The notes: generated by a model not told the origin, from the letters alone. A DNA stretch of 64,000 bases from an archaeon (GCA_030636025.1 DAOVXQ010000005.1:12700-76699); one strand, 5' to 3'. Positions 30,701 through 33,700 are shown, numbered from the stretch's first letter. Made by a program: numbers and translations.

Positions 30701-33700
30701 CTGTCGCCGAAGCATTAAACACAACATCATTTGTATTCCAGTTTGAATCATTATTCGGACTATTAACTGTTAAAGTTGGTGCAGTAACTTCACTAACATT
30801 CAAAGTCATTGGATTCAAACTACTCGCCTCTAAAATCGGGCTGTAAAAATCATATGTCCCGACATCAAACTTGAACTCAGGCAAAATATGCGTCGCATCA
30901 GTCCCAATTGTCAAATTAACCTCATCACTCCCTGAACCATCAAACAAACTATAATCCGAATACGCCCACTTCGCCCGCCCCGATGTATAAAGCTGTTTTA
31001 TCTCATCCTCACTTAATGACCTATTAAATATCATTACCTCGTCGATTGAACCGTTGAACGGTCTGTAAGTTCCATCCCAGCCCCCAATTCTTACACTGTT
31101 AGTGCTTGTCGCAAAACCCCCAATTGTGATGGTACTATTAACAAGAATTCCATCAACATATAAAACTAAATTATCGGGCTCCCATGTTCCTACAACGTGG
31201 TGCCAGTTTCCATCATGATAATTTTCATCATGCGCAATAATAAAAGAAGTTCCACTTGAATTATGTATAATTAAACTAAATTTTCCATAGCTGTCAGCAT
31301 GTAAAATATAAGCACGATTAGAACCCGAGCCACCAAATTCATTTTTAGTGATAATATAAGCATTAGAACCCAAACCAGTATTTGTGTATTTCAACCATAC
31401 TAATAGAGTCATGCCATCAGTGAGATTCAAACTCTCATCATTCCCAACATCAACCCAATCACCATCCCCATCAAAATCCCCACCCCGACTATAAACCCCA
31501 TTAGCATTTGAAATATCTCTATCCCCGCCCCCCGAAGCATTTGAATAAACCGTCCCATTATTACTATTCCCAGACCAAACACCCTCGACATCTCCCTTTC
31601 TCACCAAAACAATATCATTCCCCACATCAACATCGTAAATCTTCCCCGAATAATTCTCCCGAGTTATACTCTTAACCCTCACTTCATCATTCTCTGAATT
31701 GCCTTCCTCAGAAGGTACTTGCCGAGGCGTCAAGAAATAAACATCATCCCCATTTTCAAACCGAGAGTAAGTTTCTGTAACCTGCTCTAAAGAGAAATCA
31801 GATAAATCTTTTGAATCAAAAGATTTAAATAGTGCATTACCTGTATTATGTGTATTAAATACATTAAACAAATCCAATAAAATGCCAACACTAACATTAT
31901 CTGTTCCAGAAGAATTAAAGAAAACAATGGATGAATTACAAATCATAAATTGGTCAGCTGTAGCCAGACAAGCGATAGAACGAAAAGCATCACAATTAAA
32001 AGTATTACAAGAATTTACCAAAGACAGCGACTTCACCGAAGAAGACGCATTAGAATTAGGAAGAAAACTAAACAAAGAGTTATCTAAAAAATTTAAGGCA
32101 TCCTCGGAGCAATAAATGCAACTTGTTGTAGATGCCAACATTTTATTTTCCGCACTAATTAAAAATTCAAAAACAGCAGAGTTATTTCTTTCAGACAAAC
32201 TCGAACTAATCGCACCAGAATTTTTATTAATAGAATTCGAAAAATATAAATCACTAATATTATCAAAAACACATCGTTCTGAGCAAGAACTTTCTAATGT
32301 GCTTTTAATTTTCAAAAATAAGCTATCATTAATATCCAAACCCGAAATAGAATCGTTTCTCAAACAATCTGATTCAATTTGCCCAGACCCCGACGACATA
32401 CAATATTTAGCCACAGCACTCAAATTTAACTGCTCAATCTGGTCCAACGATAAACACTTCAAAGAACAATCTGAAATTGAAGTATTCACAACAGCAGACC
32501 TAATTGAACTATTCGAGCTTGAAGAATAAACCCTATGCTCCTCGCTAACAACCAACTCCCTGCCATCATCCAAAACAATCTTATACATCTCACCAAAATT
32601 ATCAAAAACCTGTCTCTCCGACGGCAACTGCCACTCCCCCTCACCTGTCTCATCATTCAAAGTCATAACTCTCTCATCATCTTTCAAATCAGCAAACAAC
32701 TTCCACTCTTCTTTATAGCATTTTTTATTCTTATCATCAACAGAAAAACTTAAATAATCCTCATTCTCATTATTATCTGTCAAAATGGCAGAGCTAATTA
32801 ATCCTAAACAAAAGTTTGACTCTGAATTCTTAGTTAAAGCCGTAGTTAAATTAATGAAACAAAATATTTCTGAAAGATTTTCTAAAACCAGTACTTTATC
32901 TGAGGGAGACCAAGAATTCTGCGACAAGATTGATTGGTATCCTATTGATGAATTAGAACTAAAAGAATCTTTTGTTAGGGAGTTAAAAGAAATTGAAAAA
33001 GGACCGCACTCTGAAATGACTTTAGACGAATTAGACAAATTATCAGGATTAAAATGACTTTCAAATTCGAGCTTTCTGATAAATTGAGGAACACTATCAA
33101 TAAAATCTCGAGAAAAGACAAAAATCTCTCCATTATTATAAATAAAAAAATCAGACAGATTATTTCCTGTGATGAAACTGCTATTCAACATTTCAAAAAT
33201 CTCAGGCATGGATTGAGTGACTACAAAAGAGTCCAAATTGGAAGTTTTGTCCTCATATTCAAAGTTAAAAGAGATAAAATCATCTTTGAAAACTTTGTTC
33301 ATCACGACCAAGCCTACTAAATCTTCTTTCTCTTCTTCATCTTCTTCACAATATTCAACACCTGCTTGCAGGTTCTCGCCTGCGTTGCAGGTTCTCGCTT
33401 GTGACCTGTGGGTTATGCCCTTTAGGGTATGCCCTGAAAGGGTATAATCCCATTCATCACCACAATCAACTTCAACCAAACTCAAAATCTCTGTCTCATT
33501 ATCATAACAATGCCCTGAAAAATCCTCTAAAGTTGAACCATTACTTAAATTGCTTTCATCAAAATGCCAGTATCCTACCAAGCTATCTTCTCCGACAAAA
33601 TCACTTTCATTATAGCCCAAAGAAACATCCCAATAACCTGCCCTTGCACTCAAATTGCTCCCCTCATTAGATTGATATGTCGCACTCAACTCAATATTAT

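Follow-up and report, generated by a model that had tools for sequence, protein, structure and literature searches.

Inteins are thought to persist by means of homing endonucleases and to decay to mini-inteins after the nuclease is lost. Inteins with an antisense or out-of-frame homing endonuclease have been described (Gorbalenya 1998 and Gogarten 2002, as cited in bioRxiv 10.1101/2025.01.02.630785). In actinobacteriophage inteins, LAGLIDADG and VSR-like nucleases lie antisense (bioRxiv 10.1101/2025.01.02.630785), and in cyanobacterial dnaX inteins a LAGLIDADG is encoded in the +2 frame (bioRxiv 10.64898/2026.09.14.751524). Here we analysed a 64,000-nucleotide stretch of DNA from an archaeon (GCA_030636025.1 DAOVXQ010000005.1:12700-76699, hereafter the window), in which the gene of a LamG-repeat surface protein is interrupted by two related insertions, intein 1 and its sister copy intein 2 (Table 1). 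Intein 1, the subject of this work, is a class-1-type intein by its predicted fold, its catalytic motifs and its insertion geometry. The explanation that we consider likely is that of a nuclease-free intein in which two surface loops of the Hint domain hold complete type II toxin–antitoxin operons in the antisense direction, each with its own promoter, and which would splice itself out and might be retained by addiction.

The host open reading frame (ORF) encodes 4195 aa in ~12.6 kb, and its frame is intact. The protein begins with an N-terminal membrane helix, followed by acidic repeats, seven Laminin_G_3 modules (seven stretches matched by the Pfam profile, E 7.7e-165) and a C-terminal membrane anchor. 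The junctions of intein 1 read H/CYDNET...VWSGN/S, where the slash marks the splice point, and His(-1), Cys1, the terminal Asn and Ser(+1) are common to intein 1 and intein 2. The insertion site is the conserved D-x-S-G/N-N-G-T motif of the LamG_3 modules. An upstream W..D motif is observed 20 aa before intein 1 and 17 aa before intein 2, and a downstream FDGxGD motif 31 aa past intein 1 and 24 aa past intein 2; the spacing of these two landmarks is 39–40 aa in intein-free modules. After conceptual excision, module 5 reads ...VVDYMH/SNNGSVEG... and matches ...VVDYMGRNNGSVEG... of modules 4, 6 and 7 without any indel. The spliced modules align indel-free to modules 4, 6 and 7 of the host protein, and the predicted ligated junction peptide is ...EDFSGH-SNNGTVY.... 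An earlier note on this DNA had proposed an intein-like insertion at 31566-33509, at the paralogous site of another LamG module, with the same junction residues and the same placement relative to the W..DD and FDG.GD landmarks as in the second insertion. The coordinates are exact for one in-frame minus-strand insertion, the peptides quoted there are all found in the translation, and the junction residues and landmark distances agree as given above. The indel-free colinearity of the excised module and the matching junctions thus confirm this observation. What does not stand is the view of the interior as plain intein sequence: the note missed on which strand the gene lies, that a second loop is nested there and that toxin–antitoxin operons run antisense. 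Reading the same coordinates on the plus strand gives a translation full of stops, the gene being on the minus strand.

Alignment of intein 1 with intein 2 reveals the Hint sequence in three pieces, CYDNETEILS, EEWKLF...SEEHRVYS and FKSFDSKDL...VWSGN. In intein 1 they are separated by two Ser-rich gaps of 256 and 231 codons. The three pieces were joined, with the inner segments removed, to give a mini-intein construct of 161 aa. This joining raised the profile scores only slightly, and it is the fold comparison that was decisive. AlphaFold2 (AF2) predicts the joined halves with a predicted local distance difference test score (pLDDT) of 71.6 and a predicted template modelling score (pTM) of 0.66. 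In a Foldseek comparison with the PDB, this model returns the Hint fold: all of the top 50 matches are inteins or Hint domains, headed by the P. horikoshii RadA intein (E 3e-5, TM 0.64), TFIIB mini-inteins and KlbA. Sequence-profile matches of the joined pieces in the PDB at E<0.06 are inteins only. The block B motif S-x-x-H is present as S1595-E-E-H1598; Cys1 and the block B His are invariant in an alignment of seven sequences and are found in nearly all of the ~60 surveyed copies. The +1 Ser and the WSGN/S end are present in every copy whose C-terminal junction was found (~50 copies, at least six extein contexts). We also considered an intein start at the second Cys (KKCYK/EEW) and rejected it, as the LamG module would then retain 263 junk residues and the first Hint strand would be lost.

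About 75% of intein 1 is the antisense shadow of four plus-strand genes. The VapB-PIN_2 pair takes up the classical homing-endonuclease site between blocks B and F, while the RelE-type pair is located in a second loop after intein residue 10. The PIN_2 gene begins immediately after the stop codon of the antitoxin gene and in the same reading frame. Its product is 51% identical to the PIN of a free-standing RHH_12-PIN_2 operon, found between ordinary genes of a different archaeal metagenome-assembled genome (MAG), and the acidic residues D6, E40 and D94 are kept in 38–39 of 39 homologues. The antitoxin of gene 1 has a free-standing counterpart, an operon antitoxin with PF26688 RHH_12, at 44% identity (E 2e-21); the VapB matches of the antisense antitoxins span E 1e-6 to 3e-8. 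The RelE-type toxin scores 45.7 bits with TIGR00053 (cut-off 87.25) and is also matched by Pfam ParE_toxin (E 0.011) and M. jannaschii RelE3 (3bpq, E 0.17), and its residues K48, R59, H83, H84, D85 and Y88 are kept in 12–13 of 13 homologues. Its partner, gene 3, falls in a cluster with VapB-like antitoxins that has 66 members in one shared relative frame, and a partner of this type is found upstream of the RelE-type toxin in 13 intein copies, intein 1 included. LAGLIDADG, HNH, VSR and GIY-YIG domains gave no match on either strand of intein 1; only PIN_2, VapB, RelE/YafQ and the 90-aa partner were found. The antisense genes are thus real genes, and both pairs would act as toxin–antitoxin systems.

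Promoter-like motifs precede these genes. A B recognition element (BRE)/TATA-like sequence, AAAAGATTTAAATA, is found upstream of the VapB-PIN operon, and a second one, AAAAACTTAAATAAT, lies ~32 nt before the ATG of gene 3, a spacing that suggests a leaderless transcript or one with a very short leader. Motifs of the AAAAACTTAAATAAT type with equal spacing are present in two further loci (L038 and L039). Between the TATA box and the start codon of the VapB-PIN operon, there is an inverted repeat, GTATT-N10-AATAC, which is operator-like and may serve as an operator. Palindromes such as AACATAATTATGTT are observed at the matching place in intein 2 and in many other loci. Of the 57 antisense operon starts that were examined, most are preceded by a BRE/TATA motif. 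Two spacing classes occur, one with TATA at ~-30 (suggesting leaderless transcripts) and the other with TATA at ~-55 and a Shine-Dalgarno-like GGAGG near -10. Judged by these motifs, the antisense operons look like independent transcription units. The peptide FKSF(G/D), which opens the Hint C half, is the reverse reading of the VapB-PIN promoter.

The host frame is free of stops through both inteins. Across the 648 codons of intein 1, at 34% GC, it contains 0 stops, where the other two frames of the minus strand contain 39 and 106; in intein 2, 0 stops in 444 codons stand against 30 and 83. The stop codons TAA, TAG and TGA of the antisense genes read TTA, CTA and TCA (Leu, Leu and Ser) on the host strand. 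For the VapB, PIN and 90-aa genes, the relative frame is the one with third codon positions opposite one another. Because it is codon-aligned, the RelE-type gene must avoid the codons TTA, CTA and TCA entirely. In synonymous resampling with the window's own codon usage, a stop-free host frame has a probability of 0.0037 at the RelE-type gene and of 0.047 at the PIN gene of intein 2, and the product over seven window ORFs is ~2e-6. Four free-standing RHH_12-PIN_2 operons were used as controls. Their most permissive antisense frame has 1–2 plus 2–5 stops, and every antisense frame has at least four, the range being 4–10. For codon-aligned cargo (RelE, DUF433), the antisense protein is far better conserved than its shadow. 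In the full-length model the host-frame cargo regions, with 14–23% Ser, have a pLDDT of ~25–35, and only the Hint pieces exceed 50. Selection keeps the host frame open, and the linkers that it encodes are, by this model, non-folding and probably disordered junk.

The same design recurs, with the same anatomy and fold, in many genomes. Searched as its sense translation, intein 1 matches eight proteins that share its junctions and shadow sequences and whose hosts include LamG, FGE-sulfatase and 'Hint domain-containing protein'. A locus scan over one genome per species gave 79 related loci, nearly all in MAGs of Nanoarchaeota, Woese-, Pace-, Aenigm- and Altiarchaeota. With profile hidden Markov models (HMMs) specific to each half, both Hint halves are found in one unbroken frame in 64 non-redundant copies, and ~7 of the 79 loci are broken by frameshifts or stops. 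Antisense toxin–antitoxin operons of at least five types are present in 57 of the 64 copies. VapB-PIN_2 is found in 29, the RelE type in 11, DUF433-DUF5615/Mut7-C in 11 and two operon types together in three; a PF01850 PIN pair and a DUF2283 + BECR-type pair are found in one copy each. The other copies comprise one with an in-frame PIN and antisense membrane ORFs (L049), one with an antisense membrane ORF only (L031), four with a middle of <100 aa and two with something else or nothing detected by clustering (L004, L055). L055 is counted among the 57, as a direct search found an antisense RelE pair in it (RelE E 1e-21, 90-aa partner E 6e-21). All toxin–antitoxin matches are antisense, and each cargo family is fixed in one relative frame.

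A HMMER pass over 1.84 billion representatives returned 803 proteins at E<=1e-10, most of which hold at least two separated matches and which reach 7293 aa. The family occupies at least six distinct extein contexts. Its distant members in MCM and other cytoplasmic proteins (Methanomicrobia and some bacteria) have an in-frame LAGLIDADG_3 at the middle site, and hence the toxin–antitoxin cargo stands in the place of the endonuclease. In the window and the locus flanks no free-standing cargo copies were found near the inteins, the extra matches all being antisense within the same host genes. Viral contigs yielded distant relatives only (<=54% over short stretches), which are without toxin–antitoxin cargo. 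The source organism of the window is a DPANN-like archaeon. The nearest relatives of intein 1 are in DPANN archaeal MAGs, the genes of both DNA polymerase D subunits are among the neighbours of the host gene, and the GC content is 32%.

We propose the following mechanism. All 648 codons of intein 1 would be translated within the precursor, the shadows included. The N and C halves of Hint would then dock and splice by means of Cys1, the block B His, the terminal Asn and the +1 Ser, so that the LamG module is restored, and the shadow stretches, as Ser-rich and probably disordered linkers, would be discarded with the intein. The VapB-PIN_2 and RelE/YafQ-type operons would be transcribed from their own archaeal BRE/TATA promoters. 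Antisense is the sole orientation that lets independent genes with their own starts and stops nest in the ORF without breaking it, and the codon and residue choices of the toxin–antitoxin genes have been tuned to free the host frame of stops. For a toxin–antitoxin module, the intein may offer a cost-free landing pad in a gene-dense, compact genome. In return, the module may shield the nuclease-less intein from loss, for instance by recombination with intein-free LamG repeats, a risk of special weight in a gene built of recombination-prone repeats. Addiction-type retention is the weakest link of this proposal, and we would give it about the same chance of being right as of being wrong. The broader picture, in which a large DPANN intein clade gave up homing and is now a platform for several cargoes (dual-coded antisense toxin–antitoxin operons and sense tRNA-like genes) with addiction-based persistence, seems to us evenly balanced too.

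Several observations weigh against the proposed intein with antisense operons. The profile test suggested in the earlier note is borderline only. Pfam Intein_splicing (PF14890) scores 17.9–21.3 bits against a cut-off of 35.8 (17.9 bits and E 0.003 for the whole of intein 1), and NCBIfam TIGR01445 intein_Nterm scores 24.4 against 24.5 bits with the joined pieces. The low scores of the whole insertion arise because its Hint sequence is broken into three separated pieces. The penultimate residue is Gly (WSGN) throughout the family and not the usual block G His; this His is absent from some natural inteins and is not an absolute requirement. Splicing would need to tolerate 487 residues of nonsense polypeptide in a secreted or anchored protein. 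By synonymous resampling, 140 cargo genes in the 64 copies show 0 host-frame stops against 218 expected, a comparison that overstates the test, as the survey took only pairs already in one open segment; with this pre-selection the fair figure is ~90% of copies intact (~10% broken) where roughly 10% intact would be expected. For cargo with third positions facing (PIN_2, DUF5615), conservation cannot tell the selected strand, and the profile matches alone do so. For the addiction role, the argument comes from how toxin–antitoxin systems generally behave on mobile elements, not from these data. Finally, no mobility engine was found in the family, which has reached at least six target sites.

Alternatively, the Hint module could be an autoproteolytic processing domain, of the kind of the bacterial intein-like (BIL) domains, that cleaves the surface protein rather than splicing it, with the cargo as described. 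Secreted and surface proteins are the typical context of BIL domains and not of inteins, the host is such a protein, the penultimate His is missing from the WSGN end, and a BIL domain (2lwy) and Hedgehog Hint domains are found among the fold matches, at ranks 17, 21 and 23. However, the top fold matches are true splicing inteins, the relatives are LAGLIDADG inteins in MCM, and the +1 Ser is invariant in the ~50 copies with a junction found, in at least six contexts. Moreover, the insertion is within a conserved LamG motif with exactly colinear flanks, so that cleavage alone would sever the module. We therefore regard a processing domain as improbable. Even less credit is due to the reading of an ordinary intein with a decayed endonuclease region in which the plus-strand ORFs and the open frame are coincidental, or a host gene that is a decaying pseudogene. 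Antisense frames in AT-rich genes can run long by chance and the Pfam intein score is below threshold, but a PIN_2 match at E 5e-27 is incompatible with a shadow ORF. The stop counts of the host frame (0 in 648 and 444 codons, 30–106 in the other frames, resampling P ~2e-6), the free-standing controls rich in antisense stops, the intact host ORF of 4195 codons and the presence of the design in 57 of 64 copies from different genomes already refute it.

Two further explanations accept the antisense genes and give them another role. The nucleases (PIN, RelE-type and DUF5615) might be a mobility engine that replaces the homing endonuclease, and not addiction modules. Antisense or out-of-frame homing endonucleases are documented in inteins (bioRxiv 10.1101/2025.01.02.630785, which cites Gorbalenya 1998, and bioRxiv 10.64898/2026.09.14.751524), the cargo sits exactly at the endonuclease site, and the family has reached many target sites. 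Yet the cargo consists of RNase-type toxins with a small DNA-binding partner upstream and an operator-like palindrome, the signature of type II toxin–antitoxin systems. Its close homologues occur as ordinary RHH_12-PIN_2 pairs that stand free between housekeeping genes, and several unrelated toxin folds would each need to cleave DNA site-specifically, which makes this role very hard to credit. It would be about as surprising if the operons chiefly regulated the host gene by convergent transcription or antisense RNA, for tuning or phase variation, with the toxin–antitoxin role secondary. Strong promoter-like motifs do point into the 12.6-kb gene, DPANN surface proteins are diversified, and one host of the family adjoins a diversity-generating retroelement. 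But intact coding sequences and catalytic residues in all cargo families would be needless for a role of the RNA only, and such regulation is compatible with toxin–antitoxin operons in an intein and does not exclude them.

The two copies in the host gene have a composite history. The earlier note had put the identity of the Hint blocks at about 60%; the measured values are higher. The N halves are 64% identical, the C halves 76% and the joined mini-inteins 71%, stretches of identical codons are shared, and the Hint parts of each intein find their best match in the other. Of the host modules, M3 (with intein 1) and M5 (with intein 2) have 40% identity and do not group as sisters. The antitoxins of the two inteins are 40% identical. 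The PIN of intein 2 is 76–80% identical to the cargo of L042 and L051, from other genomes, and 42% to the PIN of intein 1, which in turn is nearest to free-standing PINs. These relations were also placed in a neighbour-joining tree, whose long branches make it indicative only. Intragenic spread or an insertion before the duplication of the modules had been suggested as alternatives. The non-sister modules, the closer Hint sequences and the discordant cargo disfavour a single pre-duplication insertion, and a simple recent copy within the gene does not fit the divergent cargo either. These comparisons would fit two copies that arrived separately, or whose cargo was replaced, and whose Hint ends were partly homogenised by gene conversion. 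Intein 2 has in addition, immediately before its VapB-like gene, a 47-aa ORF that shares 49% identity with the VapB-like antitoxin of intein 1 over the N-terminal half of the latter, as if the DNA-binding domain had been partly duplicated in tandem.

Further features are observed in and around the loops of intein 1. The N-loop insertion is present, with the same insertion point and end motifs, in 14 of 64 relatives. Its ends, with motifs that are conserved in 13 related loci, read L-(E/V)-E-V-(D/E)-C-G ... K-K-C-Y-x-x-x-W with one Cys each, and this Cys pair may staple the loop base, as a disulfide or a metal site, letting arbitrary cargo be carried. A third variable loop lies between blocks F and G, from ...VLVRR to ...WSGN, and has four residues in intein 1 and 12 in intein 2. 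In some relatives (P0002-P0004, and also L006 3793-3876, L015 3847-3931, L019 4186-4271 and L057 1620-1705) it contains Asn-rich inserts of 45–60 aa or more tRNA-like genes. A perfect inverted repeat with 12-nt arms, TAAATCTTTTGA-T-TCAAAAGATTTA, covers part of the BRE/TATA upstream of the VapB-PIN genes, and this palindromic region could be a bidirectional promoter or a protein-binding site. Just 3' of the RelE-type gene, in the N-loop, two GC-rich hairpins with two copies of the direct repeat TTGCAGGTTCTCGC are found; neither Rfam nor a tRNA search matches them, none of 110 related loci has a homologue, and they could be a terminator or a stabiliser. No tRNA or tmRNA was found in the window, and an Rfam search of 27500-34500 gave one chance-level sR18 match (E 0.7).

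Other observations concern the relatives. Inside the intein ORFs of several of them, class-II tRNA-like genes of 83–92 nt with a long variable arm lie on the sense strand, and the host frame is still open. They score 46–60 bits with the Rfam tRNA model and have the anticodons GAU, CAA, GAA or GAC, and several have a TATA-box shadow ('NYLNISV') upstream at roughly archaeal-promoter spacing. An anticodon for Ile, Phe or Val on a body of the Leu/Ser type is unusual, and these genes could be decoys, mistranslating tRNAs or attachment sites. In L001, P0002 (2006-5086, with a C-terminal FGE-sulfatase domain) is followed by bAvd and reverse-transcriptase genes (5140-6874), a diversity-generating retroelement (DGR), so that an intein with toxin–antitoxin cargo lies in a protein that is a likely DGR target. 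In L049 (478-1818), the intein middle encodes, in the host frame, a PIN domain that is matched by PF01850 (E 1e-4) and fused as a homing endonuclease would be, and small antisense membrane-protein ORFs are also present. P0001 (819 aa, from a TARA 0.1-0.22 um metagenome) has one CYDDETEILT start, two successive Hint N-halves with RelE-type shadows and a single C half, a layout that suggests nested or recombined inteins. Its source labels it K10726 (MCM).

Table 1. Positions of the host gene, the two inteins, their antisense cargo and related elements. Positions refer to the window unless a locus is named.
Feature	Position	Strand	Basis or remark
Host gene, giant surface protein	24741..37328	-	ORF list, translation, Pfam Laminin_G_3
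Intein 1, 648 codons, Cys1274 to Asn1921	31566..33509	-	In-frame insertion, 0 stops
Cys1274 of intein 1	33507-33509	-	
Asn1921 of intein 1	31566-31568	-	
Ser1922 (+1)	31563-31565	-	
Hint block A strand, CYDNETEILS, Cys1 nucleophile	33480..33509	-	x/CYD(N/D)ET kept in ~60 related copies
N-loop insertion, 256 codons, LVEVDCG...KKCYK, shadow of RelE-type operon	32712..33479	-	Alignment with intein 2; AF2 pLDDT <40
N-loop end motifs	33462-33479 and 32712-32726	-	
Remaining Hint N half, EEWKLF...SEEHRVYS	32523..32711	-	N-half HMM E 2.7e-31
Block B His1598	32535-32537	-	
Central linker, 231 codons, 22% Ser, VapB-PIN shadow	31830..32522	-	Canonical homing-endonuclease site; AF2 pLDDT ~28
Hint C half, FKSFDSKDL...YDVDVGNDIVLV...VWSGN, blocks F and G, terminal Asn	31566..31829	-	C-half HMM E 4.7e-35; fold match to inteins
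Gene 1, VapB-like ribbon-helix-helix antitoxin, 77 aa	31882..32115	+	NCBIfam VapB_Sulfo E 1.5e-6, below cut-off
Gene 2, PIN_2 toxin, 137 aa	32116..32529	+	Pfam PF10130 E 5.1e-27
Gene 3, putative antitoxin partner of RelE-type toxin, 90 aa	32785..33057	+	Clusters with VapB-like antitoxins
Gene 4, RelE/YafQ-like toxin, 88 aa, codon-aligned antisense frame	33054..33320	+	TIGR00053 YafQ E 7.8e-12, below cut-off
Perfect 12-nt inverted repeat	31803-31827	+	
BRE/TATA-like promoter of VapB-PIN operon	31818..31831 (TATA 31824-31831)	+	Sequence; gene 1 ATG at 31882
Inverted repeat, operator-like	31843..31862	+	Sequence
BRE/TATA-like promoter of RelE-type operon	32744..32758 (TATA 32749-32756)	+	
Two GC-rich hairpins	33360..33453		Fold z -6.8 plus, -4.6 minus
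Intein 2, sister copy, 444 codons, aa 2538-2981	28386..29717	-	0 host-frame stops
Intein 2, 47-aa VapB-like fragment	28723-28866	+	
Intein 2, VapB-like	28867-29100	+	
Intein 2, PIN_2	29101-29505	+	PIN_2 E 3.2e-19
Intein-free LamG target DNA site type			...GATTATATGGGTAGAAATAATGGT...
tRNA-like gene, L004	4329-4412	sense	
tRNA-like gene, L008	778-862	sense	
tRNA-like genes, L015	3411-3494, 3847-3931, 5601-5684	sense	
tRNA-like gene, L030	1017-1104	sense	
tRNA-like gene, L034	2884-2966	sense	
tRNA-like gene, L035	670-761	sense	
tRNA-like genes, L040	2094-2177, 2355-2439, 2707-2789	sense	
tRNA-like gene, L046	2907-2991	sense	
tRNA-like gene, L050	2487-2570	sense	
tRNA-like gene, L057	336-419	sense	

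A widespread nuclease-less intein clade (803 representatives) that hosts toxin–antitoxin operons suggests a second strategy of persistence, addiction, and this is directly testable. If true, inteins would have a new life-style, and minimal genomes a new niche, buffered by protein splicing, for genes of selfish or defence function. The locus is also an unusually clean natural case of long antisense dual coding, over 700–1500 nt, with whole operons, a promoter that doubles as a conserved peptide motif and free-standing operons as built-in controls. Gene callers that forbid overlap annotate either the giant ORF or the toxin–antitoxin genes and never both, so that such cargo is systematically missed. 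Hint loops that tolerate hundreds of arbitrary residues would be useful to intein engineering.

Several described systems come close to intein 1. As in the non-canonical inteins, a separate gene overlaps the linker between the Hint halves while the frame stays open, an arrangement thought to arise when a free-standing gene invades a mini-intein. Those inteins carry a single mobility endonuclease and are found in phage and replication proteins, whereas here a two-gene toxin–antitoxin operon with a promoter and an operator-like repeat is found without any endonuclease, the hosts are archaeal surface proteins, and at least five cargo families occupy two to three cargo loops, sometimes in one intein. 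The LAGLIDADG inteins of the same Hint subfamily (MCM of Methanomicrobia; L071-L082) have in common with it CYDDETEILT..WKLF..VATLN, S/T-x-x-H, the end ...W(C/S)GN before S/T and the same insertion point between blocks B and F. They contain an in-frame LAGLIDADG_3 (E 1e-10 to 8e-7), where intein 1 has a non-folding shadow and the information on the opposite strand. In fractured genes with split inteins (Dassa et al. 2009, as cited in bioRxiv 10.1101/2025.01.02.630785), a free-standing gene likewise lies between intein halves, but as described there the host is split into two ORFs, and here one ORF reads through the cargo.

The cargo itself resembles type II operons (RHH_12-PIN_2 of VapBC type, RelE/YafQ) in its antitoxin-then-toxin order, profile matches (below cut-off for the RelE type), conserved catalytic residues, palindromes between promoter and start and 44–51% identity. 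It differs from the free-standing ones in lying antisense inside an intein ORF, in the same-frame arrangement of antitoxin and toxin instead of the 4-nt ATGA gene overlap used by the controls, and in its stop-free opposite frame. With BIL domains, intein 1 shares the Hint fold in large extracellular repeat proteins and the match to the BIL structure 2lwy. It is unlike them in its invariant +1 Ser and terminal Asn, in the precise interruption of a conserved module and in its sequence grouping with true archaeal inteins. No report of toxin–antitoxin genes inside inteins was found in the literature searched, which did not cover subscription-only papers. The overlapping-gene architecture of this intein has precedent; the toxin–antitoxin cargo class, the diversity of the cargo, the second cargo loop, the surface-protein hosts and the scale are new.

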